From assembly GCA_049512935.1 (NCBI GenBank), contig JBEKWR010000004.1, positions 32,001 to 96,000 on the forward strand: a DNA stretch of 64,000 nt, read 5' to 3'. A program made the position numbers and the translations under genes. The notes beneath the pieces were generated by a model, which made no database searches, was not told the origin of the DNA, and worked only from the letters and a program-made list of their open reading frames with translations. Shown here one piece after another: positions 6,678 through 56,096 of this stretch (position 1 is the stretch's first letter; every line of letters begins with the position of its first letter). This stretch comes from Candidatus Bathyarchaeia archaeon (GTDB lineage: Archaea > Thermoproteota > Bathyarchaeia > Bathyarchaeales > Bathycorpusculaceae).

Positions 6678-7735
6678 TGGCTAACTTGCAAGTTGAATCG
6701 GCAAGGTTCACCGACACAGATTTAGCCAAATACCCTTTTCTCAGGGAAACTGGTGAACGAATAAAGCTGCTGGATTTAACGCTTGATACAATAGTGAGCC
6801 CTGAGAATTCTCGGATTTTAGAGCGGGCTGAAGACAGAGTAAAGAACGCGCTTCTGAACGTGACTGTTGGCAAGAAAACTAAAGATAACATAGAAATCCC
6901 TTCATTCCCAGTCGCGATCGTTCTGGTAATAGCGACAGAGAACTCGTTTATCAAAAAGAGGTATGCGCTGGCAGAGGCAAAGCAGGCGGCTTCAGATTTA
7001 TTGAATGAGCCTGAAGAAAAAATCGTGAAGATAGCGCAGGATTTTGGCTGGAAGATAGCTTTAACTCCAAAGGAAAACTTGGGTGTTGATTCGCCTTTTG
7101 AGTTTAGCGTTAGCTTCACTGATTACTTAAGAAACTCGGCGCATCTGCATGATAAAAAGTGGAAGCTGACGAACAGCATCCTCGCCCACGGGAGTGTTTA
7201 CCTAAACAAAAAAGACGTCGCGAGGCTGCTGCTGGAGGAGGTTCGCAGACGGGTAGAAAAAAGATTAGACGTTAAGCTTCAGAAGTGCCCGTCTGAGTTG
7301 GGCGTCGTAGCCGAAGGGTTGAAGAAACTTGCCTCTGAAGTGGTCGGGGAGATAGAAACCGAGGAGTTCCCGAAAACCGTCGTTCAAGGCGCTTATCCAC
7401 CCTGTATACAATCCCTTCTTGAAACAGCCAAGTCGAATCATCACCTGTCCCACATCGAACGGTTCACCCTTACCTCGTTTCTGGTTAACATCGGTATGTC
7501 CTCGGAAAACGTGAACGAATTATTCAAAACCTTCTCAGACTACAACGAACGGTTGACTCGTTACCAAATCGAGCATATCGCAGGCGAAAGAGGTTCTGCG
7601 ACACGTTACACTCCGCCTCAATGCTCCCTGTTGCAGACGCATAGTGTATGTAAGAACAGGGACGATTTGTGCCGCCGAGTTTATCACCCGCTTGCCTACT
7701 ATAAGCGCAAGCAAAGGCTTTCTTCATCGGCGTAA
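6677..7735 (+). CDS. priL: DNA primase large subunit
   Basis: AKYPFL, YPPCI, HLSHIERF, RYQIEHIAG, Fe-S Cys ligands, HPLAYY. Confidence 0.93.
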   Translation: MANLQVESARFTDTDLAKYPFLRETGERIKLLDLTLDTIVSPENSRILERAEDRVKNALLNVTVGKKTKDNIEIPSFPVAIVLVIATENSFIKKRYALAEAKQAASDLLNEPEEKIVKIAQDFGWKIALTPKENLGVDSPFEFSVSFTDYLRNSAHLHDKKWKLTNSILAHGSVYLNKKDVARLLLEEVRRRVEKRLDVKLQKCPSELGVVAEGLKKLASEVVGEIETEEFPKTVVQGAYPPCIQSLLETAKSNHHLSHIERFTLTSFLVNIGMSSENVNELFKTFSDYNERLTRYQIEHIAGERGSATRYTPPQCSLLQTHSVCKNRDDLCRRVYHPLAYYKRKQRLSSSA

Positions 7736-7788
7736 TTACTTAAGATTTATATGCGCATCTTAGATAGTAAAACAACCGTTAGAGTCGT

Positions 7789-8532
7789 ATGAACTATCAA
7801 TTAATTGGAAATACCGTTCTCGGATCAGAAGTTGGGGTAATCCTACCCACTTATGGTGAAGCCGAAAACATCTCCAAATTAATCGATGACATTGAGAGCC
7901 TAAACTTAAACAGCACAATCCTTGTCATCGACGATTCGAGCCCGGACAAAACAGCAGAACTTGTACAGAAGAAACAAGGTAAGTACGGCAACATCCTTCT
8001 CTGTATCAGACCTGAAAAAAGCGGTTTGGGAACCGCAATAACTGACGGCTTCAAGTTTTTCTTAAACTCAACTTTACCCCCAAAATACATTATCACCATG
8101 GACGCCGACTACTCACATAACCCGAAAGCCATCCCGCAACTCTTGTCAACAATGCACAAGACAAAATGTGGAATAGTAGTCGGCAGCAGGTACATCAAAG
8201 GCGGCAACATAATGAATTGGCCTTTCACCAGAAAAACGATCAGCCGGGTTGCTAACTCTTTCGCCAAGTTTTCCCTCGGGCTAAAACCTCAAGACTGCAC
8301 CAGCGGCTTCCGCTGCTACTCCACACAATTCCTGAGAGCAGCCATCGGCAACCTTCACAGTCACACCTACGAGATACAGATAGAAACCATAAGGCAAGCT
8401 CATTTGAGGAACTTTAACGTGAGGGAAACCCCGATTCTGTTCGTTAACCGAAAAAGAGGAAAATCAAAGTTAAGTTTGACCGAGATTCAAAGCTTTATAA
8501 CTTACACGTTAAAGGCAATTTCGCAGTCTTGA
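7789..8532 (+). CDS. GT2 polyprenol-phosphate mannosyltransferase (DPM1-like)
   Basis: ILPTYGEAENI, IDDSSPDKT, MDADYSHNP, VVGSRY, DCTSGFR. Confidence 0.9.
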   Translation: MNYQLIGNTVLGSEVGVILPTYGEAENISKLIDDIESLNLNSTILVIDDSSPDKTAELVQKKQGKYGNILLCIRPEKSGLGTAITDGFKFFLNSTLPPKYIITMDADYSHNPKAIPQLLSTMHKTKCGIVVGSRYIKGGNIMNWPFTRKTISRVANSFAKFSLGLKPQDCTSGFRCYSTQFLRAAIGNLHSHTYEIQIETIRQAHLRNFNVRETPILFVNRKRGKSKLSLTEIQSFITYTLKAISQS

Positions 8533-8577
8533 CCTTCTTACAAACCTTGTTTTGCATTAACATATAATAGTACCTGT

Positions 8578-10281
8578 TTGGTAGCTTGTGCTAAATTAAG
8601 GATAGACCCTCTGATGAAGCGCCCAAGCATCAAGATCCTTCTTTTTGTCGCTCTAGCAGCCCTTGTGCTAAGCATAGTCCTCGCCGCCGTCAGTTTATAT
8701 CCAGGGGGCAGCCAATCATACGCTTCGAAAAGCACCCTCACCTTAAGTCCAAACGAAACGTACACGGAGGGTTTGGGAGCCTTCCGCGGCGGAGAAAACA
8801 TCACCCTGTGGGTGCAGTCGCCGACCGCTTTTCAAAAGAATTTTTCAATTATGGTTCCAATAGTTGAATATGTTTTAACCCTCAGCAACACCACTTACTC
8901 AATCACCACGGACTCAAACATTACATACAGCTTCATCGCAACACCCAACTATTACGAAGCAGTCTTCGTCTCAAACTCACCCGCCCCTGGCATCATCAAC
9001 TTACGCATTTCCGTTCAAGAGCCAAACGTTGCCCTTCCATATTCTCGGCTAAACGACGCCTCAAAAATCCTGTTCTTCGCCAGTTTAGTTTCAGCAATGC
9101 TCTTAACGTTAAAGTCAGCCACTTCTAAAGTTAATTCCAGTAAGCTAAGCATGCCTTCGTTAAGCAAGAAAAACCGCCGAGTCCTACTAATCCTGCTGTT
9201 AATATCACTGGTTGTCTGGCTTACGATCGCAATCTTCAATTCAAACCCGCTTGCAACGTTTGAAAACTGGTACACCGACAATGCAAGAGACTCCTACGTT
9301 TCCAGCCTGTTTCTAAAGAACGGATTTTCAGTTTTCAGCCAACCCTTAGGCAAGCTTTCAAACCTTGACACTTCGCCCTACAAGTACGTGACTTGGCCAG
9401 AAATGCCGCAACTATACCCCTTAGGCAGCATCTTCTTGTTCTTGCCGTTTGGCGTTCTTCTACAAAACGGTTTCAACCCCACCCTAATTTACAAGATTGA
9501 GATAGTCATTTTCCTGCTTTTTGCAACCGTCGGCGTCTATTTTTTCCTAAAGTATTTGATGCAGAAAGACATGCCTCTGATTCTTCGGCTGTTCGGCGTC
9601 TACATTGTTTACGTTTCTTTGGTAGTTTACGCAGCTGACGGCATGTTCGATTCAGTTGCCTTCCTGTTCTCGCTGTTTGCCATATTCATGTTTCTCACTG
9701 AACGTTACGACTACTTCTTCTTGCTCGTTGCCATCTCGGTGTTTTTCAAGTATCAAGCAGGAATTTTCCTTTTCCCGCTCATCCTGGTCGGATTAATTAA
9801 GCTTTTTCAGGAGAACAAACCTCGCAGTTTAGCGACCAACAAAGCTGTGATCGGCGGCTTAATCTTCGGGTTTGCCAGCATCTCCACTGCTCTTCTGAGC
9901 GCACCTTACTTACTGGCTACAAGCTCGCAATTCATCATGAACGGCATCAACGCTTTCGCTACGAACACGGGAATCTCATGGTCGCTCCAGACCTTCTCAA
10001 TCCTGATGACGTTAACCGTAACCCTCGCCTACGCGATTTACATGTTAAACAAGAACAGCCTGCTTTCTTTGTCCGCGTTTTTCTTGCTTCTGCCAAGCTT
10101 CATGTTGCCCTACTTCCAGAACTGGTACATGCCCTTCATTTTCGTCTACGTGTTAATCCCTCAGAGGAAAAAAGAGTTGATCGCCACAACGCTATGGCTG
10201 ACCTTCTTAGTGGTAGTGCTCGCGGTGTCAGGGTCAAATTACCAGCCGATTCCTCTGATTCTCCAGTATCTTCATCTCTAA
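8578..10281 (+). CDS. Multi-pass membrane protein, probable GT-C (GT87-like) glycosyltransferase
   Basis: Many TM segments, WYTD, YPLG, GMFDS, VFFKYQ motifs; next to DPM synthase; start may be ATG at 8613-8616 region. Confidence 0.55.
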   Translation: MVACAKLRIDPLMKRPSIKILLFVALAALVLSIVLAAVSLYPGGSQSYASKSTLTLSPNETYTEGLGAFRGGENITLWVQSPTAFQKNFSIMVPIVEYVLTLSNTTYSITTDSNITYSFIATPNYYEAVFVSNSPAPGIINLRISVQEPNVALPYSRLNDASKILFFASLVSAMLLTLKSATSKVNSSKLSMPSLSKKNRRVLLILLLISLVVWLTIAIFNSNPLATFENWYTDNARDSYVSSLFLKNGFSVFSQPLGKLSNLDTSPYKYVTWPEMPQLYPLGSIFLFLPFGVLLQNGFNPTLIYKIEIVIFLLFATVGVYFFLKYLMQKDMPLILRLFGVYIVYVSLVVYAADGMFDSVAFLFSLFAIFMFLTERYDYFFLLVAISVFFKYQAGIFLFPLILVGLIKLFQENKPRSLATNKAVIGGLIFGFASISTALLSAPYLLATSSQFIMNGINAFATNTGISWSLQTFSILMTLTVTLAYAIYMLNKNSLLSLSAFFLLLPSFMLPYFQNWYMPFIFVYVLIPQRKKELIATTLWLTFLVVVLAVSGSNYQPIPLILQYLHL

Positions 10282-13400: not shown

Positions 13401-13431
13401 GGTGCTTGGGAAGGGATTCGAACCCCCGCGA
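13401..13431 (-). pseudogene. Degenerate tRNA 3'-half (T arm plus acceptor strand), att-like copy of the tRNA at 14286
   Basis: Minus strand ggggg-ttcgaat-ccctt-cccaagc-acc; no matching 5' half. Confidence 0.65.
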
Positions 13432-13534
13432 ATGCAAGATCGTCCATTGCAATACTTGTCTAGCAGAATTACTCCTTGGGTTTTGAGCAAACTTGATAAG
13501 TGAACTATGCCTTTTCTCATTTGGAGGGGCTATA

Positions 13535-13831
13535 ATGCAGACCGAGAGAGGACTCGACCAAAAAAGCAGGGAACTAAATACGAAACCTTATGAAGAAACC
13601 AAATTCTTGCGTAACAAAAGATTTTTCGATGGAATCAAGACTGAGCTCCTCAAGTCTTCAAGGTACTGCGGCAAGTTCATTGCAGTTTATGACGGCAAAA
13701 TAGTTGGCTATGACGAAAACAGGGTTAAACTTGCCATAAAGGTGTATGACAAGTTAGGGTATGTTCCCGTTTATATCGGTAAGGTGGACAGTGGAAAAGA
13801 AACTGTTGAGTTGCCGTCACCTGAGGCATAA
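13535..13831 (+). CDS. DUF5678-like small protein
   Basis: YCGKFIAVYDGKIVGYDEN...VPVYIGKV, typical partner upstream of clan AA proteases. Confidence 0.7.
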   Translation: MQTERGLDQKSRELNTKPYEETKFLRNKRFFDGIKTELLKSSRYCGKFIAVYDGKIVGYDENRVKLAIKVYDKLGYVPVYIGKVDSGKETVELPSPEA

Positions 13832-13837
13832 AAGGAA

Positions 13838-14213
13838 ATGAAACCTTACGACGCCACCTATGACCCACCTGCAGTAGTCTTGGATATAACAGTCGTAAAT
13901 CCTTTCGTCAAAGGTCAGCCCAGCATTAGCGGCAGAGGAGTTGTTGATTCGGGCGCTTTCAAATCGGTCATTCCCCAAACGCTGGCAAGCCAAATAGGGC
14001 TTCTTCCAATCACAGAGATAACCACCAAAGGCTATAATGGCAGGTGGCAGAAACAGCCTGCTTCGATAGCAACCATTGTTTTAGACGGGCACGTTTTCGA
14101 GTATGCCGAGGTTCTCTTGGTAAAGAGGGATACAGCGTTTAATTGGTCGCGATATCTTAAATCAGCTTAAACTTACGCTTGATGGACCAAAGCTGGAATT
14201 TGAAGTATTCTGA
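13838..14213 (+). pseudogene. Retropepsin-like (clan AA) aspartyl protease with a frameshift near the C-terminus
   Basis: VVDSGAFKSVIP; conserved LIGRDILNQLKLTLDGPKLEFEVF continues in another frame after gcgtttaatt (~14140). Confidence 0.75.
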
Positions 14214-14285: not shown

Positions 14286-14410
14286 TGGCGCCGGGGAAGG
14301 GATTTGAACCTCTTGCGAGCACATGATCTATTGGCTGGCTTGCCTTTTGGCTTTAGCCCTCTTTGCTTTTTGAATTTCAAGTCAGCGCGTTAACCACTCC
14401 GCCCGACGGC
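14286..14410 (-). tRNA. Degenerate intron-containing tRNA-Ser(TGA)-like gene, possibly a pseudogene
   Basis: D arm gcggagtggttaacgc, loop cttgaaa, ~35-nt insert, long variable arm, ggttcaaatccc, ends gcca; mismatches in acceptor, anticodon and T stems. Confidence 0.6.
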
Positions 14411-14535
14411 GTTTCGTAAGATCAATGCATCAACAGCAAATTTCTAACTCAAAGCAGCCCTCATCCGAAAAATCGCAGCCGCGCTTCTAAAATCCGAAAT
14501 TCACGCAAAACCTAAACAGCCTTGAAACCTAACCC

Positions 14536-14716
14536 GCCCATAACCGACAATAACGTCAACATACGCTCAACATGGAAAGTCGCATTCCGCCCATCCGAAA
14601 GTCGCAATGTTCTTACAGAAGCCAAGCCTAAACCCAAAAAGCAACATGAAAAGCAACCTGCCACCCGCGAAAGTCGCAACTTTCACCAAGGCAAAAGTCG
14701 CAACTTAAAAAAATAT
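14536..14716 (+). repeat. Interspersed ~180-bp element, copy 1 (four AAAGTCGCA motifs)
   Basis: Motifs at 14576, 14598, 14670, 14694; homologous to the reverse complement of 27749-27927. Confidence 0.85.
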
Positions 14717-14824
14717 AGAACACCGCAAAAAGCCATTTTTCGAAAAAAACCATGATTTTCAGCCAGTAGGCGAAAAAGTATAAGAATGCGTATGTTCCTT
14801 CTATGCAAAGCTGGTAGTGAAAAA

Positions 14825-23913: not shown

Positions 23914-23914
23914 T

Positions 23915-27613: not shown

Positions 27614-27748
27614 TAACTAAACACCTTTCACAACAAATTATCCAATAACGAGTTGGGATTTACCCATTTAAGTTTTCCCCAGTAGCCCATTTTTTTCTTC
27701 AGTTGGCTTTTGCTGTTTTGGTTTTTTTTGGGTTGGTTTTTGTTTGCA

Positions 27749-27927
27749 ATATTTTTTAAGTTGCGACTTTTGCTACGGTAAAGTTGCTACTTTCGCGGGT
27801 GGCAGGTTGCGTTCCCTGTTGCTTTTTTGGTTTGGGGTTTGAGGCTGTTTGAACGTTGCGACTTTGGGATGGGCGGAATGCGACTTTCAATGTTGACTCC
27901 ATGTAGGCGGCATTGTCGGATATGGGC
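27749..27927 (-). repeat. Interspersed ~180-bp element, copy 2 (inverted relative to copy 1)
   Basis: Minus strand gaaagtcgcattccgcccatcccaaagtcgcaa...gcaacctgccacccgcgaaagtagcaacttt...gcaaaagtcgcaacttaaaaaatat. Confidence 0.85.
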
Positions 27928-28073
27928 GCTACGGGTTTTTCTGTGGATCAGGTTGCACCTTGCTGTCGCTGAAAGAGTGGGCGCACAAGAAACAGTCTCA
28001 AACGACAAAGACTTTGACAAGACAGAAATAAAAAGAACAATGTAACCGAATCAAACTCAGATTGGTGGCGGGA

Positions 28074-28109
28074 CTGCCCGTCCCCATACCCAAACGTGTT
28101 CAAAACCTT
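28074..28109 (+). repeat. 36-bp direct repeat, left island boundary
   Basis: ctgcccgtccccatacccaaacgtgttcaaaacctt; 33/36 identical to 37816-37851. Confidence 0.85.
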
Positions 28110-28336
28110 GAGCTATTAACAATAGGAGAGAGCGCGCGAGCATCAATTTACCAATAAAAACTGCTAGAAAAAGCCGTTGAATGCAAAGCACGCCTCACGA
28201 AGATCAAGCAATGAGGCAAAGATTTAGATGCCCTCCTTAACATTAGGTCAGCGCACAAATCGTCTATACACAAACAAATAAGAGGAATCAGTTCAGGGGG
28301 ATTCTTCGTGATAAAGATCTAGCGTGCGCTGGCATC

Positions 28337-29347
28337 TCAAAAAGTCTCCTTCTTTCCTGAAAGGAAGTCACAATTAATTGAAAAGCCTTTGTTAGCTGAA
28401 TCTATCATTGCTTCAGCGATTTTGACGGCTTCAACTGCTTCTTCTGGAGGAATCCTGTTTGGTTGTTCATTTTTCTCTATGCATCCGGCAAAGTACTCGA
28501 GTTCACTTCTCAGGGCACCACTGAGATTGTCATTGATATGTGCCTCCATGTGGAAGTCGAAGTAAGACATTTGTGAGTTTGACCATATTTCGATATCTGG
28601 AAAGTGCCTAACAAATGCTGTTTCGTTAGTTCCAATAATCTCAACTTCGTAATCATTTTTAAATGGAGAATTCTCGGGAAGATGAGAAACGTTTTCGAAG
28701 AAGCCTACTGCCCCAGTGTCTAAAACCAACATAGCCCATGTTGCGTCTGGCATCATTCGTCTAAGGAAAAATGATTGCCTAGCGTGGATTTTAACCACTT
28801 TTCCACCTATTAACCAGTTAAATAGGTCAATGTCATGTATCGTCGAACTAAGAAAAGGATGCACTTCTGAATACTTTTCAAAGGTTGAGGGCTTGTAATT
28901 TCTGCGTGCGTAGAAAGAAACAATTTCTCCAAAGGTGCCGGTTTCAATCTCTTGTTTGATTTGCGCATATCTATTATCAAATCTGAGGGTATGCCCTACC
29001 ATTAGCAAAAGACCACTTGTTTTCGAAAGCATAAGCAGTTCCTCAGCTTCTTTTGAAGAAACGGCAAGTGGTTTTTCCACGATAACATGTTTGCCCGCGG
29101 TCAAAGCCTCCTTTACTAGGGCATAATGGCTTTTTTCATTAACAACAATATCCACTGCTTGAATGTTACTTTTCTGTAAAATCTCCTTATAATCGGTGTA
29201 CTTCTCTATTTCCTCTTTTTCAAAAGCGTCGAGTTTTGATTTATCAGAATCGCATACTGCGTAGAGGTCGACTCCTCGCATATTCAAAAAATTATTCGCA
29301 TGTAACTTACCAAAGTTGCCTAAACCAATCACGGCAATTTTTATCAA
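28337..29347 (-). CDS. Gfo/Idh/MocA family oxidoreductase
   Basis: IGLGNFG, GKHVIVEKP, VGHTLRF, IHDID. Confidence 0.9.
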   Translation of the reverse strand: MIKIAVIGLGNFGKLHANNFLNMRGVDLYAVCDSDKSKLDAFEKEEIEKYTDYKEILQKSNIQAVDIVVNEKSHYALVKEALTAGKHVIVEKPLAVSSKEAEELLMLSKTSGLLLMVGHTLRFDNRYAQIKQEIETGTFGEIVSFYARRNYKPSTFEKYSEVHPFLSSTIHDIDLFNWLIGGKVVKIHARQSFFLRRMMPDATWAMLVLDTGAVGFFENVSHLPENSPFKNDYEVEIIGTNETAFVRHFPDIEIWSNSQMSYFDFHMEAHINDNLSGALRSELEYFAGCIEKNEQPNRIPPEEAVEAVKIAEAMIDSANKGFSINCDFLSGKKETF

Positions 29348-32493: not shown

Positions 32494-32612
32494 CTAGTTC
32501 TTTATTTCTCCTTTATGCTATTTATTTGGTGCCGCGCGCAAGCTAAGCCACTAAAGAATATTTAGAGTGAACCAACCACAATTCATTTTCTCACATTGCC
32601 TAATACTTTCAC

Positions 32613-33437
32613 TTAAAGCCCCCTAACCTCATCTTTAATTGAATCGAGGTCCTCGAGCTTCGTGGCAGAAGAAACTTGATCAAGCAAACTATTCTTTCGT
32701 TTTTTCAGTTCGCCCTTCAATGCATCACTTCTTGAAATAACTTCTTCCCTCGACTTCTTTGCAAAATCTCCGCCTATTTCTTTCGATTCTTCCGCCCATC
32801 TCAGATTGCATTTTTCTGCATCACAAATCTCGTCTTCTTCTTTCTTGAAATGCTGCTTTATCTGGTCCACCAAATCCCGTTTTTCATACTCCAATAATTT
32901 CTTATTTCTCTCCACTTGTTCCATCATCAATGCGTGCCAAGTACGATAGTTTGATAATAAGGTGTCGACGTCAAAACCCATATCGAGCCCCACTTCAGCT
33001 TGTAAATAATCTTTTGTCTCTTCGTCATAAACTCTGAAGCAGTTCGTCAAGACAGTCACAGTCCCACCATTTTGTTTTTTATCTCCAGCCAAGAAATTTA
33101 CTTGACGATAGTTTTTATCAATTATTCTCAAGCAGTCCATCTCAGACTGCGTCCTCTCATATTCATCAACAAATAGATCAAGGTAATTCTTGCCTATGGC
33201 CTCCTTTGCGGAAATATTGTACATTTTTTCACAATTTCCCGCCCAAACAATTATGTTGAAGTTTCTGTCGCATGCCCAACAGGAATAAGGGGCTTCGTCT
33301 AGTATTGCCAACTTTATCTTGTCTTCCCGTGTCTTAGGTGGATTGCTTGCCAGTTCACTCTTTAATTCGCAAATAATACCGTTTAGTCTTATGTTCTCTT
33401 TGATAAGATCTTCTTTTGTCAAATCCTTGTATTCCAC
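32613..33437 (-). CDS. PAS-domain protein with coiled coils and no output domain
   Basis: AILDEAPYSCWACDRNFNIIVW...CEKMYNISAKEAIGKNYLDLF; charged helical C-terminus. Confidence 0.7.
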   Translation of the reverse strand: MEYKDLTKEDLIKENIRLNGIICELKSELASNPPKTREDKIKLAILDEAPYSCWACDRNFNIIVWAGNCEKMYNISAKEAIGKNYLDLFVDEYERTQSEMDCLRIIDKNYRQVNFLAGDKKQNGGTVTVLTNCFRVYDEETKDYLQAEVGLDMGFDVDTLLSNYRTWHALMMEQVERNKKLLEYEKRDLVDQIKQHFKKEEDEICDAEKCNLRWAEESKEIGGDFAKKSREEVISRSDALKGELKKRKNSLLDQVSSATKLEDLDSIKDEVRGL

Positions 33438-33616
33438 TTTTCCTCCACCCTCTTATCAATTAGATGATTTTGTCCGTCGCAATTTACTTACAAGCGATTT
33501 TTCTACTATATACACCTATTCAGTACTTAAGATTTTTTCAAGAAAACTATCTAAAACTTCAGATTACCCTAAAATTAATAAGCAAAAACTCTACAGAATC
33601 AACTGAGCGGGTACAA

Positions 33617-34381
33617 ATGAAAAAAGCGCAAAAAACAGCTCTTGTGACAGGAATGTCTCGAGGGATAGGGAAAGCAATCTGTGAGAAACTCGTGAAAGAG
33701 GGCTATTTTGTCTATGGCACGTACAATACGGGTGAGCAAGAAGCAAAGATGGTTAAGGAAACGCTCAAGACTGTAGAGATCTTTCAAGCAGATTTCAAAG
33801 ACAGAAAACAAACCTTAGCTGTGATAGAAAAACTGGGCAAAATCAAATTTGATGCGATAATCAACAACGCCGGAACGTTCGAAGGCGAATTGTTCGATGA
33901 GTTTGACTTTAAGATATGGGATGACATAATCGCCGTCAATCTGACGACCCCGTTATTATTTTCCGTGAAACTACAAAAGAACATCAAAAACGGAGGAAGT
34001 ATCGTAATCATTGCTAGCACTGACGGACTTCAAGGTTCATTTGCAAGCATATCGTATTCAGCTAGTAAGGCTGGACTGATAAACATAACAAAAAGCCTAG
34101 CAAATAATCTTGGCAGCAGAAACATTAGGGTGAACGCAATAGCTCCCGGATGGATTAACACGAAAATGGCCACTGAATCCTCGTATAAGGCAGCACAGAT
34201 CACACCTTTGGGTAGAAATGGCAAACCTGAAGAAGTGGCGGACCTCGCACATTACCTGATTACGAACTCGGCAAGTTTCATAACAGGGGCAACAGTGATT
34301 ATTGATGGCGGTTACACTTGCGTCGATACAATTATGAAGATGGAAGCGGAAGAATTCAAAAAGACAGACAACTCTAACTAG
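33617..34381 (+). CDS. Short-chain dehydrogenase/reductase (FabG-like)
   Basis: TGMSRGIG, NNAG, YSASK, VNAIAPG, IDGG. Confidence 0.92.
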   Translation: MKKAQKTALVTGMSRGIGKAICEKLVKEGYFVYGTYNTGEQEAKMVKETLKTVEIFQADFKDRKQTLAVIEKLGKIKFDAIINNAGTFEGELFDEFDFKIWDDIIAVNLTTPLLFSVKLQKNIKNGGSIVIIASTDGLQGSFASISYSASKAGLINITKSLANNLGSRNIRVNAIAPGWINTKMATESSYKAAQITPLGRNGKPEEVADLAHYLITNSASFITGATVIIDGGYTCVDTIMKMEAEEFKKTDNSN

Positions 34382-34407
34382 TCACTTGGGAGAGCAGAAA
34401 TACTAAC

Positions 34408-35379
34408 ATGAAAATATTGGAGTATGATGAAATCGAGTGGCAACAAGCACTAGAACTGAATCTTGTGGGTTTCGATTGGTATCTCACACCAGATTTGGTG
34501 GAAAAGATACTTAAAGCAGATAAACGAGTACCCGAAGGTTACGCAATCTACGCTACTGAAGGTAAGACAGTTCTTGGTCAGGTTGGCATCCTAGTAGATA
34601 CTGTTCAAACGATAAGTGGCATGGAAAAACTTGGATACCTTTGGACAATTGTTACTAAGCCAGGTTCGACCAACAAAGGAATTGCGACTCGTCTCATCGA
34701 GGAAGCCCACTCAAGATTAATCTCACAAAATGTTCGATATTCGTTTCTTGGCACTCAGAAATCTCTTGTAGCTTACAACCTTTTCAAGAAACTAGGCTAC
34801 TCTGATTTGATAGACCACAATATGGGACTCAAATCCTGTTCCAACGTTCCACCAAATAGCGCCGAGCATAAGTCAACTGGAATCCGACTCCTGCGCGAAA
34901 TCCGCACATCTTTTGACGATGAGACAATAATGAATATGTTTTCAAAGTACGCAACGGGTCTTTTGGGGTTCGTTCACAGGCCGCAAAATTTTCTCAGCAT
35001 TCGAAAAGCCTGGGGATGGATGCCAGTAAACTTAATCTGTGTTTTTCAAAAGGAGAACGAATCAGTGGGATATTTATTGGGAACTAAGGAAGATAATAGT
35101 ATTAAAATTAGAGAATTAATTTGTGTGAACCCGCTTGACCTATCGGCTTGTATTCTTGCCGTCGAGAAAGAGTTGAGGCCCCGTTACATAATATTTGATT
35201 TTACATCGAGAGAATGCGTAATTTCGAAACTCGCAAATGTTGGTTTTAGATTCATTAGGCCAACTTATGCCACATATATGATAAAAGACTTGACGAGAGA
35301 GCGAAGCATTGAGGAGATAAGAAATTCATTTAGCGTAAAAAACGATAAATTTCAAATGTCGATAATCGACTATTATTAG
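34408..35379 (+). CDS. GNAT family N-acetyltransferase
   Basis: IVTKPGSTNKGIATRLI, YNLFKKLGY. Confidence 0.8.
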   Translation: MKILEYDEIEWQQALELNLVGFDWYLTPDLVEKILKADKRVPEGYAIYATEGKTVLGQVGILVDTVQTISGMEKLGYLWTIVTKPGSTNKGIATRLIEEAHSRLISQNVRYSFLGTQKSLVAYNLFKKLGYSDLIDHNMGLKSCSNVPPNSAEHKSTGIRLLREIRTSFDDETIMNMFSKYATGLLGFVHRPQNFLSIRKAWGWMPVNLICVFQKENESVGYLLGTKEDNSIKIRELICVNPLDLSACILAVEKELRPRYIIFDFTSRECVISKLANVGFRFIRPTYATYMIKDLTRERSIEEIRNSFSVKNDKFQMSIIDYY

Positions 35380-35462
35380 TAATTACTTTACCAGAATTCC
35401 TCTTGGTAAGAATTCGACATTCATCTTGATCGTACCAGCTTCCTTTCTAGGAAATATCGCCC

Positions 35463-36545
35463 TTAGGGATGGCTAAACTCATATTTGCAATCTTCGGGAG
35501 TGAGGTTCTTTAGCAAGTATCTAATGGGCGCGCACACTCTTTCTTTTTTGCCGAACATACTTCCAGTTTCGTTAGTCACTTCTCCAAGGCAATAACCAGC
35601 ACAATGGTATTTCGCGACGCATCCTTCACAACCGGGCATATTGTCTGCGCATCTGGAACGCAAGGTTTTCATTTTAGCATCGTCGTAAACAATTCTTTTG
35701 TTTCTCTTATCCCATTTTCCATATATTAAAGCTGATAAGGGGTTTTTATCTTCACCAAATAAAGCCATGTCGCATGCTGACACGTAGCCATCTGTTGTCA
35801 AATGAGGTACGGGTAAGCAAGCTCTACAGGCATAGTTGACTTCTTCGTCAAAGTTGCATGCTAGGAAGCTTCCATAAAACATCCCCTTTCTCTTGGCATG
35901 CTCCCTTGCTTTTAGGAACTGGTCGGCATACTCCATAAGACTCATCGTGTCAGTGAGTTCCTTTTCGCCAACGCTTGGGAAAATAGGGTCTGTCCAGATA
36001 TGTCTAACACCTAAGCTGTAAAAATAGTCAATGTTAGCTTTTTGGCTGAACACATTGTCAGATGTTATAGTCGATCTGATGCCGGTCATTCCTTTGCAAG
36101 CCTTCGTTAGGTACTTAACATTCTCTTCAAGTAATTTTGAAGTTGGAAGTCCACTTTTTGTTTTGCGATAACGGTCTTGTTGTTCAGGCAAACCGTCGCA
36201 GGAAATCCAGATGTTATCGACATTCTCAGATAGCCAATCTCGTATTCCTTGCCCAAAGGTGCCGTTTGTCTGAATTTCAGATGTTAATTCGTCGCCTACA
36301 ATCCCGTAAGCGTATTCAGTTATTTTCTTCATTAACTCAAAAGCGCAAGTTGGTTCTCCTGGTCCTTGGAACCTTATGTGCTTTTTCATGTCAGTTTGGA
36401 AATAATCGTCCATTCCAACCTTCGCAAATTCAAAATCTAGCGTTTGATTTGCGTGCTCAGATCGGTCTACATAGCAATAACTGCAGCTCAGGTTGCAATT
36501 ACTTGTCATAAAGAAAGAAATCATTTGTTTTCTGAAATGCCCCAT
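35463..36545 (-). CDS. Radical SAM protein with SPASM-like C-terminal domain
   Basis: CNLSCSYC, GEPT, QTNG, DGYVSAC, CEGCVAKYHCAGYC...C. Confidence 0.88.
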   Translation of the reverse strand: MGHFRKQMISFFMTSNCNLSCSYCYVDRSEHANQTLDFEFAKVGMDDYFQTDMKKHIRFQGPGEPTCAFELMKKITEYAYGIVGDELTSEIQTNGTFGQGIRDWLSENVDNIWISCDGLPEQQDRYRKTKSGLPTSKLLEENVKYLTKACKGMTGIRSTITSDNVFSQKANIDYFYSLGVRHIWTDPIFPSVGEKELTDTMSLMEYADQFLKAREHAKRKGMFYGSFLACNFDEEVNYACRACLPVPHLTTDGYVSACDMALFGEDKNPLSALIYGKWDKRNKRIVYDDAKMKTLRSRCADNMPGCEGCVAKYHCAGYCLGEVTNETGSMFGKKERVCAPIRYLLKNLTPEDCKYEFSHP

Positions 36546-36697
36546 AGATTTTTCCTCTTTTGATGCTTTGTATAAATCTAAGTTGCACTTTGCATTTTTA
36601 AGTTTTATTTAATGATGGCGTTATTACTGACTTTTTGAAGCATGCGGAAGAGATTCAAGCGATAGTTACTATGCGAGAACATCCCAAATGTTAACTC

Positions 36698-37690
36698 CTA
36701 TATGATTTCGTTGAAAAAATCATGGTCATCAGCGAGTTGTCTTAATCCGTCTCGCCCAAGTTGTAGATAATGCTCAGTTTCCTTTGAGAAATTTTGATTG
36801 ACTGACTTTTCGTAGGTCGTAAGCAGTATGTGCATTCCAAATGCCAGTTTGATGTACTTTGGAAGGGCTTTACGCTCGAACTCGGTCAAGGGTTTTGTTT
36901 TTTGATATTCGTCAAGTGCAATCCTGTACTTTCTTCGAGTTTCGCTCCTGTTTTTTGAGTCAAAAAGAAAGTCGCTGGCAAGAACAGAAATCTCTTGTAT
37001 GCGTGGGTAGGTATTTGAAACAGAAAAATCAATTATCCAAATTTCGCCTTTTCGATCCTTCATTATGTTCGTACGCACTAAATCCCCATGTACAAAACAA
37101 TGTGGCAATTTTCGAATCTTCAGGTGATCGAACTCACGATACAGTGAGCTTAGCTGCCTTAAATCTTCCAGCGATAGATATTTTGATTTTCTATCAAACT
37201 CTTTTTTGAAATTAGTTACCGCCCAAGCGTCATAGACAAATGGAGGTCTTAACGCAATTGAGTTGATTAGTGCAGCCTGCTGCGCCACCCTTCTAATCGC
37301 AACGTCATCCGGTCTCTCTGACAAGTTGAAGAAGTCTTTTCCATCTACATATTCGAGCAAGCAGAATCTAAGATTTGTTTGACCCAACGAGAGAACGTTC
37401 AGATATCCGTTTCTTGTTCTTATGAGACTGGGGGTCTTCACGCCTGAGACTATCACCTTTGCCATAATATCTACATACCTTTTGCAATCAAGTATTGTCT
37501 TTGAGGTTGCGAAAACTTTTACAAAAAACCTGTTGCGTGTTGTATCCAAAACGAAATTAAAGTCTTCGTATCCGGTGAGAACAAGTTCATTTCCAAGAAA
37601 ACTCCCGAGTTCAAAATCATTACAAATTTTCCTCGATAAATTATCTAACACATCGTGGTATCCAATTCTCGAGCCAAAACTGGGGTCCAT
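36698..37690 (-). CDS. APH/homoserine kinase type II-like phosphotransferase
   Basis: GYEDFNF, FFVKVF, VHGDLVRTNI, IIDF. Confidence 0.85.
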   Translation of the reverse strand: MDPSFGSRIGYHDVLDNLSRKICNDFELGSFLGNELVLTGYEDFNFVLDTTRNRFFVKVFATSKTILDCKRYVDIMAKVIVSGVKTPSLIRTRNGYLNVLSLGQTNLRFCLLEYVDGKDFFNLSERPDDVAIRRVAQQAALINSIALRPPFVYDAWAVTNFKKEFDRKSKYLSLEDLRQLSSLYREFDHLKIRKLPHCFVHGDLVRTNIMKDRKGEIWIIDFSVSNTYPRIQEISVLASDFLFDSKNRSETRRKYRIALDEYQKTKPLTEFERKALPKYIKLAFGMHILLTTYEKSVNQNFSKETEHYLQLGRDGLRQLADDHDFFNEII

Positions 37691-37815
37691 GGATTATCAG
37701 TATCATTCAAAGATGTATAAATAATCTCCCAAGCGCTTCGTCATAAATTAGCTCGCGCTAAATAATCATTAACATAATATCGGGACAAACCAGCGCTAAT
37801 ATAGGGCACGCGCGG

Positions 37816-37851
37816 CTGCCCGTCCCCATGCTCAAACGTCTTCAAAACCTT
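37816..37851 (+). repeat. 36-bp direct repeat, right island boundary
   Basis: ctgcccgtccccatgctcaaacgtcttcaaaacctt. Confidence 0.85.
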
Positions 37852-38008
37852 TCTAACCCGAAGGAGGTATTATGACTTCAAAAGTGGTGTTGAGAGGGGG
37901 ATCCCAGCACCATTTTACCCGTAAAAAGTTAACTGAGCTGGGTTCTGAAAGTAGCCTAAAATGCTTTTGATGTGGCGGATGACAGCAGCTGCGCGCGCCG
38001 ACCTTAGG

Positions 38009-38044
38009 TTGCCTGTCCCCGTACCCAAACGGCTTCGAAATCTT
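38009..38044 (+). repeat. Third, more diverged copy of the 36-bp repeat
   Basis: ttgcctgtccccgtacccaaacggcttcgaaatctt. Confidence 0.7.
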
Positions 38045-42335: not shown

Positions 42336-42680
42336 CTAAGCAGTCCAGAAGGAAAAAACATCCAGTTTCTCATTCTCAAACTGCTTTTTCAAGATTCCCT
42401 TGACTTCATCCTCATCCAAGTTAAAAACGCCTTTCTTATCTTTGTGGAGGGGAATTCCTGTTTCCCTGAGTTTTTCGCCTTTCGGGAAGTCCAAAAAAAT
42501 GTAGTAGCGCTTGTCGTGGAGCATTATGAGCCTCAGCACGGTTAGTTCCTTGTTTGGAGAAAACCCGTTTTGTTCAAGGATGAAGACTATTGAGCCAGGC
42601 TTCTTTTCTGTGACTAAGCGTTTGAATTCCTCCCAGCCTTTGACTCTAACTTGACCTTCATCCACGTGTTTACTTATCAT
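42336..42680 (-). CDS. Hypothetical protein, paralog A (intact)
   Basis: Highly similar to 45796-46143. Confidence 0.75.
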   Translation of the reverse strand: MISKHVDEGQVRVKGWEEFKRLVTEKKPGSIVFILEQNGFSPNKELTVLRLIMLHDKRYYIFLDFPKGEKLRETGIPLHKDKKGVFNLDEDEVKGILKKQFENEKLDVFSFWTA

Positions 42681-52639: not shown

Positions 52640-53889
52640 CCAAGTTGCCTCAAGACGGCGACAAGAAAAAAGACAGCGAAGAACTAATACTCAGCAAAGA
52701 GTTGCTGGACGCGCTTGCGAAGTTCAAGCAAATCGAGATTGAAGACTTCGAGATCGACGTCAAAGAGCTAGAGCTAATCTTTGAGCCTGGAATGGCTGGG
52801 CAAGTGATGCCCAAGCTAAAGCTTCCAGCCCCAGTTGCGGCAGGCGGAAAACCCACAGCCATGCTTCAGACGGCTTTCATACCGCCAATCGAAACCTACC
52901 CGAACACGATAACAGAAGTCAAACTCGGCGCAACCCGAAGCGAAGGCGGAACACGCGGAAAATCATTCACCATAGGCGGCGAAACGTCACCCCCATTCTA
53001 CAATTTTGAGCGACCCACCACTCACAAACCAGTAGTCACTTTGGACGTTTTCGACATGGAAGTGCCATTGAGCAAAGCCGTGAAGATGCACGTTAAAGAC
53101 GTCGTCGGCGACCCAGCGGCATGGGCAAAACTTGCGGTAGACCAATTCAAAGCAGACATGGTTACAATCCATTTAATCAGCATCGACCCATTGCTCAAGG
53201 ATGCAACACCGAAAGACGCGGTCAAAACGGTTGAAAAAGTTCTGCAAGCCGTGGATGTTCCCTTAGTCATCGGCGGCTGCGGGGACGCAGTAAAAGACGC
53301 TGACGTTTTCCAGGCGATCTGCGAGGCTTTCCCAGGCGAACGCTTCCTCATCAGTTCAATCACGCGGGACATGGATGTTGAACGCTGCGCAAAGTTCGTT
53401 AAGAAAAACGGGCATGCTGCGCTCTCGTTCACACCGATGGACCTGAACCTGGCAAGGGAGCTTAACAGGCGGCTCTACGATTTCCTCGGCAGAGAAGACA
53501 TTGTCATGGACTTGACCACCGCGGCGCTTGGCTACGGCTTAGACTACGCATTCACAAACATGGAACGCGCAAGACTCGGCGGATTAATGGGCGACATGGA
53601 GCTGGCTCACCCGATGTCTTCGGGAACAACAAACGCTTGGGCTGCCCGTGAAGCCTGGCTGAAAATGTCTGCTGATTGGGAACCGCGCGAACTCCGAGGT
53701 CCACTGTGGGAAGTAACAACAGCCTTAACTCTTCTGCTTGCTGGCGTCGACCTGTTCATGATGATGCATCCAGCAGCCGTCAAAACACTCAAAGACGTAA
53801 CCAACTACCTGACAAGCGGCAAAAAAGCAGACCCAGCTAAATTCGCAGATTGGGTAACCATGAAAGCTCAAGGGGTTGGAAAGCAATGA
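52636..53889 (+). CDS. cdhD: Corrinoid Fe-S protein small (delta) subunit
   Basis: LGATRSEGGTR, TAALGYGLDY, NAWAAREAW, MMMHP. Confidence 0.95.
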   Translation: MTKLPQDGDKKKDSEELILSKELLDALAKFKQIEIEDFEIDVKELELIFEPGMAGQVMPKLKLPAPVAAGGKPTAMLQTAFIPPIETYPNTITEVKLGATRSEGGTRGKSFTIGGETSPPFYNFERPTTHKPVVTLDVFDMEVPLSKAVKMHVKDVVGDPAAWAKLAVDQFKADMVTIHLISIDPLLKDATPKDAVKTVEKVLQAVDVPLVIGGCGDAVKDADVFQAICEAFPGERFLISSITRDMDVERCAKFVKKNGHAALSFTPMDLNLARELNRRLYDFLGREDIVMDLTTAALGYGLDYAFTNMERARLGGLMGDMELAHPMSSGTTNAWAAREAWLKMSADWEPRELRGPLWEVTTALTLLLAGVDLFMMMHPAAVKTLKDVTNYLTSGKKADPAKFADWVTMKAQGVGKQ

Positions 53890-55307
53890 GCGAGAAAAAA
53901 AGAGCCAGCTTAAAAGAATTAAGCCCCATTGACATTTACAAGCTTCTTCCGAAAACTAACTGCAAGGAATGCGGTCAAGACAACTGCATGGCGTTCGCGA
54001 CAAAAATCGTTAACCGCGAAGTAGAAATCGACAGCTGCAAACCACTGTTCAAGCCCGAAAACGCGAAAGCCTACGCCAAACTCAAAGACCTGCTTAAGCC
54101 CGCCGTTAAGGAAGTCATCGTCGGCGTCGGCGACAAATCAAAGAAGCTCGGCGGCAAACTTGTCATGTACCGCCACGAGTTCACTTACAAGAACCCGACA
54201 GCTATCGCGATTGACGTGACCGACGAAATGCCAATGCAGGAAGTCGTCTCGCGTGTACAGTACACGGAGAACTTTAGCTTCGAATACATTGGTAACACGC
54301 TTAGGCTGGACATGATCGCGGTCAGATGCACTTCAGGAGACGCAGACAAATTCAAGGCAGTAGTCCAGAAAGTCGCGGAAACAACCAAACTTCCAATGAT
54401 ACTTTGCACCCTGAACCCCGTGATCGCTGAAGCAGGCTTAATGGCGGCGCCAAAGGCGAAACCGCTACTGTACGCGGCAACTCAAACCAACTGGAAAGAC
54501 ATGGCTGAACTTGCCCTAATGTACGAGTGCCCGCTAGTTGCTTCTGCACCAAACGACTTGAACACGCTGGTTTCCCTTGCAAAGACACTTATGGCTTACG
54601 GAGTAACCGACTTGGTTTTGGACCCAGGCACCTTCCCAAACGAAGGGTTACCTGACACAATCAACAACTTCACGATGCTGCGAAGGGCAGCATGCAAAGG
54701 CGGCGAAGAACTAGCAGGTTTCCCACTTATGGGCGTCCCGATGGTCGCTTGGAACGATAGCGCCTCGGCTGAAGACCTGCTGAAATGGCGTGAAGCATAC
54801 TTAGCAGCAATGCTCATAGTTCGATACTCAGATGTGCTCGTGATGCACAGCGTAAGCGGCTGGTCACTTTTGCCAGATACAGTGCTGCGCCAGAACATCT
54901 ACACTGACCCACGCAAACCCGTCGCGGTCGCCCCAGGACTCAAAGTGTTCGGGACACCAGACGAGAACTCGCCAGTAATGTTCACCACAAACTTTGCCCT
55001 AACCTACTACACCGTCGCCTCAGACCTCGAAAGCAGCAAAATCAACGCCTACCTAATCGTCGTTGAAACAGAGGGCTCAGCCATCGACAGCGGAGTCGCA
55101 GGACGAAAACTAACCGCGGAACGAGTAGCCGACGCAATCAAAGCCTCAGGCATCGAAAGCAAAGTCAAACACCGAAAACTCATAATCCCAGGCAAAGCAT
55201 CACGAATCAGCGGCGAAATCGAAGAACTCAGCGGCTGGAAAGTACTGGTCGGACCAAGAGACAGCAGCGAAATACCCAAATATCTCATAGAGAAATGGCA
55301 ACCATAA
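53886..55307 (+). CDS. cdhE: Corrinoid Fe-S protein large (gamma) subunit
   Basis: LPKTNCKECG..NCMAFA, IYTDPRKP, TTNFALTYY, VGPRDSS. Confidence 0.95.
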   Translation: MSEKKRASLKELSPIDIYKLLPKTNCKECGQDNCMAFATKIVNREVEIDSCKPLFKPENAKAYAKLKDLLKPAVKEVIVGVGDKSKKLGGKLVMYRHEFTYKNPTAIAIDVTDEMPMQEVVSRVQYTENFSFEYIGNTLRLDMIAVRCTSGDADKFKAVVQKVAETTKLPMILCTLNPVIAEAGLMAAPKAKPLLYAATQTNWKDMAELALMYECPLVASAPNDLNTLVSLAKTLMAYGVTDLVLDPGTFPNEGLPDTINNFTMLRRAACKGGEELAGFPLMGVPMVAWNDSASAEDLLKWREAYLAAMLIVRYSDVLVMHSVSGWSLLPDTVLRQNIYTDPRKPVAVAPGLKVFGTPDENSPVMFTTNFALTYYTVASDLESSKINAYLIVVETEGSAIDSGVAGRKLTAERVADAIKASGIESKVKHRKLIIPGKASRISGEIEELSGWKVLVGPRDSSEIPKYLIEKWQP

Positions 55308-55446: not shown

Positions 55447-55674
55447 ATGGAAGAGTTGCTTGATAGGATAACTGTCGATCCTGATGTTCTCGTTGGAAAG
55501 CCCGTTATTAGAGGAACCCGCATTCCTGTTTACCTCATCGTAGAGTTTGTAGCTAACGGGATGACAAATAAAGAAATACTAAAAGAATACCCGCGGCTAA
55601 GAGAAGAGGACATCAAGGCAGCGCTAATTTATGCTTCTAAACTTGTAGAAAGCGAAGTCACTGTCACTATCTAA
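55447..55674 (+). CDS. DUF433 family putative antitoxin
   Basis: ITVDPDVLVGKPVIRGTRIPV, YPRLREEDIKAAL. Confidence 0.9.
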   Translation: MEELLDRITVDPDVLVGKPVIRGTRIPVYLIVEFVANGMTNKEILKEYPRLREEDIKAALIYASKLVESEVTVTI

Positions 55675-55691
55675 AAAGAAGAACTGAGTAA

Positions 55692-56051
55692 TTGACGCAA
55701 ACAATTATAGTTGACGAAAATATCCCCCAAAGCGTCGCTAAATATCTTAACACGAAGGGCATAAAGACTTTTAGCATTTCCGACGATTTCCTGAAAAGCG
55801 CAAAAGACTCAGTCATAGCTTCGTACGCATCAGAAAAAGGAATGCAGATATTGACGCTAGATTCTGACTTTGCTCAGTTGTATCACAACGTCTTCAGGGG
55901 CAGGATTACCGTTTTACTTGTGAAAGCAAATCCAACAACCGCCGAAAACATAATCGATATTCTTGATGCAGCGCTAAATAAAATAAGAAAAACTGAAACC
56001 CCAAACAAGCTTGTCATAATCACAAAAAAGAGAATTAGAATAGTTTCTTAA
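55692..56051 (+). CDS. DUF5615 PIN-like putative toxin
   Basis: IIVDENIP, AKDSVI, ILTLDSDF. Confidence 0.85.
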   Translation: MTQTIIVDENIPQSVAKYLNTKGIKTFSISDDFLKSAKDSVIASYASEKGMQILTLDSDFAQLYHNVFRGRITVLLVKANPTTAENIIDILDAALNKIRKTETPNKLVIITKKRIRIVS

Positions 56052-56063
56052 CATCTGTCTCTC

Positions 56064-56096
56064 AGAGAATGGCAGCCATAAGCAATCCGCTCTCTT
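56064..56096 (+). repeat. Degenerate duplicate of the cdhE 3' end (55289-55320)
   Basis: agagaatggcagccataagcaatccgctctctt vs agagaaatggcaaccataagccatccactctt. Confidence 0.8.

Follow-up and report, generated by a model that had tools for sequence, protein, structure and literature searches.

The window, by which we mean the whole 64-kb stretch of DNA analyzed here (contig C4, positions 32001-96000), belongs to a 2.30-Mb metagenome bin of an uncultured archaeon of the Bathyarchaeia, comprising 49 contigs and 93% complete; the genome under study is labeled G000, other G numbers denote relatives of the same genus, and C and L numbers denote contigs and loci. By Pfam content, the window holds the replication genes PCNA, PriL, PriS, GINS, MCM, and RFC, followed by the cluster for carbon monoxide dehydrogenase/acetyl-CoA synthase (CODH/ACS; cdh) and by purine genes, and a search of public runs found near-identical DNA in the assembled contigs of 24 peat and wetland runs. 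We describe an arrangement in which small cassettes of low GC content, mostly with defense or addiction genes, each directly follow a conserved housekeeping gene and have, on their far side, a direct but truncated repeat of the 3' end of that gene. A preliminary description of the window had listed five modules bracketed by duplications of a neighboring gene end in the absence of an integrase, and the clearest of these lies behind a cdhE-type CODH/ACS subunit gene (53850..55307, + strand; CdhD and FeS domains by Pfam) with orthologs in 55 of 61 genomes of the genus. The last ~18-25 nucleotides (nt) of this gene together with ~20 nt downstream form the proximal repeat copy (55283-55328, +), as defined by the repeat alignment. 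Next comes a toxin-antitoxin (TA) pair (55447..56051, +) that consists, according to Pfam, of a DUF433 antitoxin-like gene (55447-55674) and a DUF5615/PIN-like toxin gene (55692-56051), and behind it lies a decayed, partial copy of the cdhE 3' end (56064..56096, +) that retains ~17 nt of coding sequence, the stop codon, and ~13 nt beyond. At a distance of 757 nt, the last 18 nt of cdhE and ~16 nt of the sequence behind them appear a second time, in an alignment of 31 columns with three mismatches and one gap whose score of 18 was equaled by none of 300 shuffled queries over 8.5 kb; the claimed repeat around the TA pair is genuine.

Comparison with the relatives showed that the region between cdhE and purF varies extensively across the genus. 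The gap spans 1386 nt in the window versus ~317 nt in G019, and the spacers in 29 relatives' loci range from ~50 nt of unique sequence (G019 and G003) up to 12.5 kb (G056). The TA pair of the window stands behind cdhE in five of these 29 loci (G051, G061, G004, G013, and G024) and is missing from G019 and most others, while the cargo found in other spacers includes a STAND ATPase (G053 and G013), a Kelch protein (G060), a 950-aa NHL protein (G051), a P-type ATPase (G002), a TIR protein (G058), and a ParB/endonuclease set (G047). Six of the 29 relatives (G004, G061, G013, G051, G053, and G060) have partial cdhE copies of 44-161 nt behind their modules, with two such copies each in the tandem arrays of G013 and G051, the latter on a 1.7-Mb contig. 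In G004, the stop codon of the live cdhE gene is followed by cassette sequence, and the distal copy (96 nt plus stop codon) leads directly into the downstream sequence of the empty-site genome G019. G004, G061, and G013, each of which falls in a different clade of the cdhE tree, all join the end of the TA cassette to cdhE at position -96. The cdhE-purF spacer is a genus-wide hotspot with tandem modules, each of which has a partial cdhE copy behind it.

Counting the window, 6 of the 29 tips of the cdhE tree carry the TA pair, and they are scattered over the tree. The TA modules are 72-86% identical between species, and their identities run independently of those of cdhE; between the window and G051, the TA pair is 74% and cdhE 88% identical, and between the window and G004, these values are 83% and 80%, respectively. 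All of these identities are low, and the insertion events are therefore old. We considered that the TA cassette might jump between sites and rejected this possibility, as all five close relatives of the toxin in a species-representative genome collection lie 350-430 nt past a cdhE end. The hotspot also carries a palindromic motif, CTTACAGGGTGTAAG, with a degenerate second unit (56141..56175, +), paired copies of which lie at module borders in the cdhE spacers of G051, G053, G013, and G004. In several genomes (L067, L069, L076, and L049), the paired palindromes, CTTAYnGGGnGTAAG spaced 17 nt apart, occur 50-80 nt past the cdhE stop codon and again after the STAND ATPase gene, and they may serve this hotspot as an operator or as a recombination site of its own. 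A role of CTTACnGGGnGTAAG as a general cassette border was rejected, with eight matches in G000 versus nine in a reversed control; the motif is restricted to the cdhE spacer.

A genome-wide scan, as the preliminary description had proposed, established that the arrangement recurs. From 2291 crudely called open reading frames (ORFs) of at least 80 aa, we took the last 60 nt plus 30 nt downstream, counted 2289 gene-end queries, and scored as a match any direct copy of at least 34 bits in intergenic DNA located 150-15000 nt downstream. Fifteen gene ends had such a copy, compared with three in the upstream control of the same geometry and two and four in the inverted controls; matches elsewhere in the genome predict ~2. 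A further 12 matches were genic, and some of these are the ends of paralogs. The general architecture proposed from the window thus exists (15 versus 2-4 in the controls), although of the five examples on which the proposal was built, two drop out entirely and two more are different in kind, as detailed below.

The no-integrase class of docked cassettes in G000 comprises ~13 protein-gene loci in one 2.3-Mb genome. Upon realignment, the repeats extend over 46-316 nt with 79-94% identity, as illustrated by those of the glutamine synthetase gene glnA (-285..+31; 316 nt at 89%), an aminotransferase gene (123 nt at 90%), the tyrosyl-tRNA synthetase (TyrRS) gene (112 nt at 88%), the deoxyhypusine synthase gene (125 nt at 79%), and the locus at C3:138697 (65 nt at 94%). 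No obvious perfect core is shared by the repeat copies, though later decay could erase one. The modules measure 0.4-6.6 kb and have a GC content of 0.37-0.45, versus 0.475 for the genome as a whole. Their Pfam-assigned cargo includes TA-type pairs (MazE with PIN three times, PIN_3 with a partner, and an MNT-like pair), a type II N6_N4 methyltransferase with an EcoO109I-type endonuclease at glnA, a class II prokaryotic Argonaute (pAgo; E-value 3.5e-237) with a helix-turn-helix (HTH) protein and a Cas4-like nuclease, a dCTP deaminase (4.3e-94), and a PDC-S35 TIR protein with an ABC-type ATPase. The pAgo cassette (C1:212488-218078, L117; 5.6 kb, GC 0.39), which further encodes two unknown genes, stands behind a gene for a 301-aa protein, 52-86 nt of whose end are repeated after the cassette. 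As the preliminary description had it for the window, the targets share no sequence, and the different modules likewise have no DNA or ends in common, except for PIN genes and a dispersed repeat.

Relatives provided the empty sites that such insertions call for, namely at cdhE, at glnA, where all 29 relatives' loci are free of the restriction-modification (R-M) module, and at TyrRS, where G056 and G009 have spacers of ~95 nt. At glnA, the distal copy aligns with G064 and G063 for 38-51 nt past the stop codon, as opposed to 0-1 nt for the proximal copy. The distal copy thus keeps the native flank and is therefore the displaced original gene end. With 89% identity, the two glnA copies resemble each other more than either resembles any relative (≤85%). 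When changes were polarized with seven relatives, the live copy had 1/0/6 and the distal copy 5/1/5 at codon positions 1/2/3, with a further 2/0/6 that were ambiguous; over nine loci, the differences between repeat copies, compared as a test for a foreign ortholog, lean to third codon positions (24/18/53). The glnA substitutions fit equally well a near-identical duplication followed by decay of the distal copy, a course of events that would not require a diverged donor copy.

No dedicated recombinase turned up in these modules. Pfam searches yielded no match to recombinase families among 65 proteins from 16 G000 loci or among 74 ORFs from the cdhE spacers of 11 relatives, and none to a recombinase or transposase family among the 70 ORFs of the window. 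Hence, the earlier statement that no recombinase is present holds for the window, with the qualification that the genome has one elsewhere: a 511-aa tyrosine recombinase on C2 (123052-124584; L114:979-2514), the only full one in G000. A six-frame search of the genome with PF00589 returned only this gene (C2:123574-124107) and a weak integrase C-terminal fragment beside a tRNA-Val on C21, and G000 showed no match to PF00239, PF07282, PF01609, PF01867, or PF01797 (serine recombinase, TnpB, DDE_Tnp_1, Cas1, and Y1 transposase, respectively). The 511-aa protein scores 51 bits against the XerA profile, versus a cut-off of 220. Its family is present in 40 of 61 genomes with up to five copies each, is 96% identical in G056 and G016, was not found in the close relatives G051 and G064, and has many copies that lie at contig ends or contain stops. 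This patchy, multi-copy distribution implies that the family is itself mobile, and the 511-aa recombinase looks like an active mobile element. Among 16 integrase loci that we inspected in relatives, ten had a tRNA within ~350 nt, four of these loci had flanking repeats of 26-98 nt at the tRNA, and none had a duplication of a protein-gene end around the integrase.

Two further insertions in the window are genuine but different in kind from the gene-end class. The preliminary description had placed one of them, a DUF5678/protease module, between copies of the 3' half of a tRNA-Ser gene; the insertion itself stood up to scrutiny, as the module is absent from all 29 relatives' L44e loci, while its 'tRNA-Ser' is recognized by neither ARAGORN nor Rfam. 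The repeat consists of 17 shared nt that represent a tRNA T-arm, and none of 300 shuffles scored as high. On one side lies a fragment resembling a tRNA 3' half (13401..13445, -), with a T-arm and the acceptor strand CCCAAGC, without a matching 5' half, and with only a weak Rfam T-arm match; its acceptor strand differs from that of its partner. That partner is a degenerate tRNA-Ser(CGA)-like pseudo-tRNA with a homologous intron (14288..14411, -), a paralog of the intron-bearing tRNA-Ser(CGA) on contig C7, in which the T-arm, the 3' acceptor strand, and the CCA are intact and the 5' acceptor and anticodon stems are broken. ARAGORN called no gene at 14288-14411, Rfam gave no tRNA match there even at E-values up to 1, and the acceptor strands were unpaired by eye; in the 64-kb window as a whole, ARAGORN and Rfam found no tRNA. 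The cargo between the two (13493..14170, +) encodes a 112-aa protein, which matches DUF5678 only at an E-value of 0.0018, under the cut-off, and a 110-aa retropepsin-like aspartyl protease (Pfam); neither gene occurs at any of the 29 relatives' L44e loci. The gap between the exosortase and L44e genes is 1507 nt in the window versus 192-823 nt in those 16 of the 29 relatives' loci where both genes are present. Direct inspection of the L44e locus in five relatives revealed no tRNA, and a similar pseudo-tRNA lies upstream of L44e in G053 and G047. For this module (13.4-14.4 kb), unlike for the gene-end class, the more probable origin is a classical element that integrated at a tRNA gene and has since decayed. 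As to tRNAs in the bin at large, only 42 were called, and at least two tRNA-like 3' ends (C18:30006-30335 and C3:142700) were missed by ARAGORN; the low count suggests unusual introns or many tRNA-derived att remnants.

The other insertion is a 9.7-kb island of low GC content (28110..37809; GC 0.36-0.43), for which the preliminary description had reported a bracketing repeat downstream of a tRNA-binding gene. This repeat is genuine (0 of 300 shuffles) and brackets DNA that the relatives lack, yet it was not copied from the end of the neighboring gene. It comprises three copies of 42 nt, all within the inserted DNA: direct repeat 1 (DR1; 28068..28109, +), DR2 (37810..37851, +; 88% identical to DR1 over 42 nt), and DR3 (38003..38044, +; 71% identical to DR1), the last of which lies where the inserted DNA ends on the right, 27 nt past the stop codon of the tRNA-binding-domain gene (38071-38412, -). 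No counterpart of the repeat was found downstream of the tRNA-binding gene in G051, G064, G016, or G003, and it is therefore not a copy of the neighboring gene's end. RFC-S and the tRNA-binding gene are 10.3 kb apart in the window versus 87-118 nt in 28 of 29 relatives' loci, including that of the closest relative G051; in the 29th locus, RFC-S was not found. The island encodes a GFO/IDH/MocA oxidoreductase, an EamA transporter, a phosphotriesterase, a PAS protein, an SDR, a GNAT, a radical SAM protein, and an APH-type kinase, with no recombinase by Pfam, and no close relative of the phosphotriesterase turned up in the species-representative genome collection. From a public run, one contig of 11,323 nt covers 27888-39210, that is, the island and its right junction; on the left side, contigs end inside a dispersed repeat. 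The island, which has a 42-nt triple repeat of its own, is an insertion different in kind from the gene-end class.

The dispersed repeat, ~190 nt long, is represented in the window by a copy with four AAAGTCGCAAC iterons (14535..14725, +) and by a second, inverted copy at the left edge of the island insertion (27700..27930, -), where independent contigs break; the genome contains 27 copies of at least 100 nt. Copies are 75-88% identical and have an A-rich tail that ends in a TATA-like box; inverted ends were not observed. Contig ends coincide with several of the copies, and the contigs of public runs also break inside the repeat. It is missing from the orthologous intergenic regions of most relatives and is found upstream of L44e in G051, G053, and G047. 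An association of this repeat with tRNA genes or modules was rejected, a T-loop motif being near only 4 of the 27 copies.

The remaining two pairs do not belong to the gene-end class at all. The claimed repeat of the priL 3' end (7710..7730, +, with 10327-10348) around two glycosyltransferase genes is a chance match, as 292 of 300 shuffled queries did no worse than its score of 9 over these 12 kb. In the genome-wide table, 378 of 2289 gene ends have a downstream match and that of priL has none; what precedes priS is a conserved promoter region and no priL copy; and the supposed cargo is old, with GT2 lying between PriL and PriS in five of five same-genus relatives and the 567-aa membrane protein in four of five. 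G021 (L029) has no 567-aa gene between GT2 and PriS, where the four other relatives and the window have it, which looks like a lineage-specific loss. The whole-gene duplicate described around four genes is real as a similarity (300 nt at 73%); the two copies are, however, intact paralogs in a rearranged region and do not bracket acquired cargo. The 114-aa gene at 42336..42680 (-) is a gene-family duplicate with 76% amino-acid identity to 45796-46143, and the AsnC, NifX-like, and OsmC genes between the two are kept next to the cdh cluster in G019, G051, and G064. The region is ordered differently in G051 and G019, and what moved is a PQQ-propeller gene together with one paralog. This PQQ/beta-propeller gene (42753-44174, -) contains eight internal repeats of 120-135 nt (families D2-D5) that are the blade repeats of the protein. 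On a larger scale, a 36-kb block from Csl4 to translin, with all the replication genes, is inverted relative to Tyw1 in comparison with G003, G019, and G051, with boundaries at window positions ~3300-3490 and ~39788-39886; the neighbor of Tyw1 is translin in these three relatives and Csl4 in the window, where FrhB comes after translin. In the bin, contigs C41, C45, and C36 have GC contents of 0.69, 0.64, and 0.37, versus 0.46-0.51 for the remaining contigs, and are probably mis-binned or foreign DNA.

How, then, might cassettes come to lie behind gene ends? Reportedly, R-M systems in bacteria undergo an 'insertion with long target duplication' (Nobusato et al., 2000). We favor, with belief and doubt in about equal measure, the reading that the protein-gene class is the archaeal counterpart of this process, a recombinase-free, homology-addressed insertion; our confidence stops there because the anatomy alone fits both a single crossover and the action of an integrase that was subsequently lost. 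In the proposed mechanism, a circular or circularized DNA would carry the cassette plus tens to ~300 nt homologous to the 3' end of the target gene, and one Campbell-type crossover with the chromosome, performed by the homologous recombination machinery of the host, would leave the gene intact, place the cassette behind it, and push the truncated end copy with the native downstream flank to the far side. Since homology itself would be the address, each cassette could have its own target and an integrase would be unneeded. A crossover between the two copies could excise the cassette or set it free, tandem arrays would grow as further cassettes dock behind the live gene, and the distal copy would decay with time, the cdhE copy in the window being down to 33 nt. 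What the data themselves show is the anatomy, the excess over controls, the empty sites, the native flank at the distal copy, the arrays at the hotspot, the lack of recombinases and of common cassette ends, and the kind of cargo; the circular intermediate and the use of host recombination are what we infer. The preliminary description had suggested single-crossover integration of small circles carrying a diverged copy of the target or, alternatively, a relaxed-specificity integrase acting in trans. The intact host gene, the native distal flank, and the tandem arrays are as the former predicts, the divergence of the donor copy appears unneeded at glnA, and no circle was observed. Targets that share no sequence and modules that share no ends argue for a homology address over one relaxed integrase.

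The alternative with the most to recommend it is that the modules are remnants of tyrosine-recombinase elements that had integrated at tRNA genes or protein-gene 3' ends and whose attP contained a surrogate gene end; the integrase and most of the element would have been deleted, or the element would have left via alternative sites, so that cargo stayed between attL and attR, much as in cis-mobilizable elements or cargo-only islands, an explanation that we regard as possible though doubtful. It would produce an identical anatomy, with an intact host gene, a partial distal copy, and tandem accretion, and archaeal precedents exist, as 14 of 68 integrated elements in Thaumarchaeota lie at 3'-distal regions of protein genes (PMC6563490). 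Integrases are abundant in the genus (PF00589 in 58 of 61 genomes, often 4-8 per genome) and lie beside tRNAs with 26-98-nt flanking repeats, the second module of the window is bracketed by tRNA-derived sequence, and an integrase C-terminal fragment adjoins the tRNA-Val on C21. The bin is, moreover, 93% complete, binning tends to lose mobile elements, and the 511-aa recombinase on C2 could make the junctions in trans. Against such an origin, neither an integrase nor a fragment of one is found in the ~13 G000 protein-gene modules or the cdhE spacers of 11 relatives, and each target would need its own lost integrase. None of the 16 relatives' integrase loci targets a protein-gene end, a sample drawn from several hundred such loci. 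The repeats, at up to 316 nt of coding sequence, also far exceed archaeal att sites, which are mostly <25 bp in Thaumarchaeota and 29-69 bp in Crenarchaeota (PMC6563490). Several other observations weigh against homology-addressed insertion. Because the TA modules are old, vertical descent with many losses accounts for much of their patchiness. Duplication was seen in other species only at cdhE, a second TyrRS copy being present in none of 29 relatives' loci. The contigs of four peat and wetland runs, searched over window positions 19800-39700, contained no circle, excision joint, or empty-site variant, though contigs cannot show rare forms. The scan rests on crude ORF calls, its 5'-end control queries gave nine and eight direct intergenic matches, so that some of the 15 may be other local repeats, and at least two of its 'host' loci (C18:30006 and C3:141225) are really tRNA-derived ends.

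Less likely, in our view, is a duplication of the target at insertion, in which a double-strand break or widely staggered nicks near the gene end would be followed by fill-in or break-induced copying and the DNA be end-joined. The glnA copies are nearest each other and their polarized changes fit identical copies diverging in place, much of the cargo encodes nucleases that might be the break maker (PIN, restriction enzyme, pAgo, and Cas4-like), and the idea is discussed for the bacterial R-M insertions with long target duplication (PMC2853133). It would leave unexplained, however, that the same TA cassette shares the same cdhE -96 junction in three clades and always sits at cdhE, and that new modules in arrays always dock at the live gene end; much cargo (STAND ATPase, Kelch, and transporters) also lacks a nuclease. 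We consider it very improbable that the class is a product of chance similarity, local paralogy, or assembly artefacts of metagenome bins. Such causes do account for two of the five pairs (priL by chance and 42336/45796 as paralogs) and for some scan matches that are paralog ends, and contigs break at the dispersed repeat by the island. Conversely, 15 gene ends compare with 2-4 in the controls, pairs 2, 3, and 5 (the tRNA-linked module, the island, and cdhE) were matched by none of 300 shuffles, the same architecture is seen in independently assembled genomes, including the 1.7-Mb contig of G051, the 11.3-kb public-run contig covers the right junction of the island, and a copy divergence of 6-21% is far over strain-level variation.

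Among known systems, the G000 cassettes come closest to a class of bacterial insertions. Furuta et al. (2010; PMC2853133) report R-M systems in bacteria inserted with long target duplication by a mechanism that is unknown, including an insertion in H. influenzae whose 46-bp repeat overlaps the 3' end of a gene, and they state that no archaeal case passed their selection. Their insertions resemble ours in having a direct repeat >30 bp, a low-GC insert without transposase or integrase, and empty sites in relatives (PMC2853133). In the present data, a collinear empty site exists for cdhE-purF, glnA, and TyrRS; the repeats are >30 bp (46-316 nt), and both copies align with the relatives' single gene end at glnA and cdhE; inserts are <20 kb, with no mobility gene in or beside them; and genes for both restriction and modification occur at glnA only, not in other cargo. 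As the cargo is mostly not R-M, the class works like that of Furuta et al. without being a member as originally defined. Unlike their cases, ours come from an archaeon, number ~13 protein-gene loci per genome, carry mostly non-R-M cargo (TA, pAgo, dCTP deaminase, TIR, and STAND ATPase), are systematically placed at the 3' ends of housekeeping genes, and include one genus-wide hotspot with tandem arrays.

Resemblances to other systems are more partial. Archaeal elements with an integrase or casposase insert in tRNA genes or in 3'-distal regions of protein genes, with att sites of mostly <25 bp in Thaumarchaeota and 29-69 bp in Crenarchaeota, according to Krupovic et al. (2019; PMC6563490). They have in common with the G000 modules the kinds of target, an intact host gene, flanking direct repeats, and tandem integration, and they differ in being found via their integrase or casposase and in having short att sites, whereas the G000 modules have no recombinase and have repeats of 46-316 nt. 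No integrase gene was found inside the G000 modules, no transposase or casposase match in G000, and no ends shared between modules. The scar-free core defense hotspots (cDHS) of P. aeruginosa, for which Johnson et al. (2023) proposed transfer by homologous recombination through conserved flanks (PMC10250203), are similar in that a variable stretch with defense systems differing by genome lies between two fixed core genes. In contrast to these, the modules here each have part of the upstream gene repeated behind them, a sign of a single-ended rather than a double-flank exchange. Integron cassettes, finally, are likewise small, promoter-poor, often of TA or defense type, and arrayed at one site, whereas the modules described here have no IntI beside them and no shared attC-like element, and are dispersed over many sites, with the end of the local gene repeated at the border of each module. 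The docked-cassette pattern has so far been described mainly for bacterial restriction systems, and a literature search with subscription journals outside its scope found no description of this architecture in archaea or for TA or pAgo cargo.

Defense systems are mobile, and the route by which cassettes lacking a recombinase spread has yet to be worked out in bacteria and has hardly been looked at in archaea. A single uncultured peat archaeon here offers about a dozen natural examples with one anatomy, including one site at which the cargo differs between species. For the discovery of new defense genes in archaeal metagenome-assembled genomes, this yields a practical rule, namely to search wherever the end of a housekeeping gene turns up again as a stray copy, in the stretch between gene and copy, and for annotators, it carries a warning that short 'pseudogene' fragments of core genes are acquisition scars. 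We suggest, tentatively and with less confidence than we attach to the insertion mechanism itself, that Bathyarchaeota move defense and addiction cassettes without a dedicated recombinase and so cycle them between genomes of the genus, with the 3' end of a conserved housekeeping gene as the address label, a single host crossover for entry, and release by recombination between the two copies. If this holds true, gene-end docking sites such as those at cdhE, glnA, and TyrRS would play the part of integration hotspots in archaea, and insertion with long target duplication would gain the mechanism that it has long lacked.

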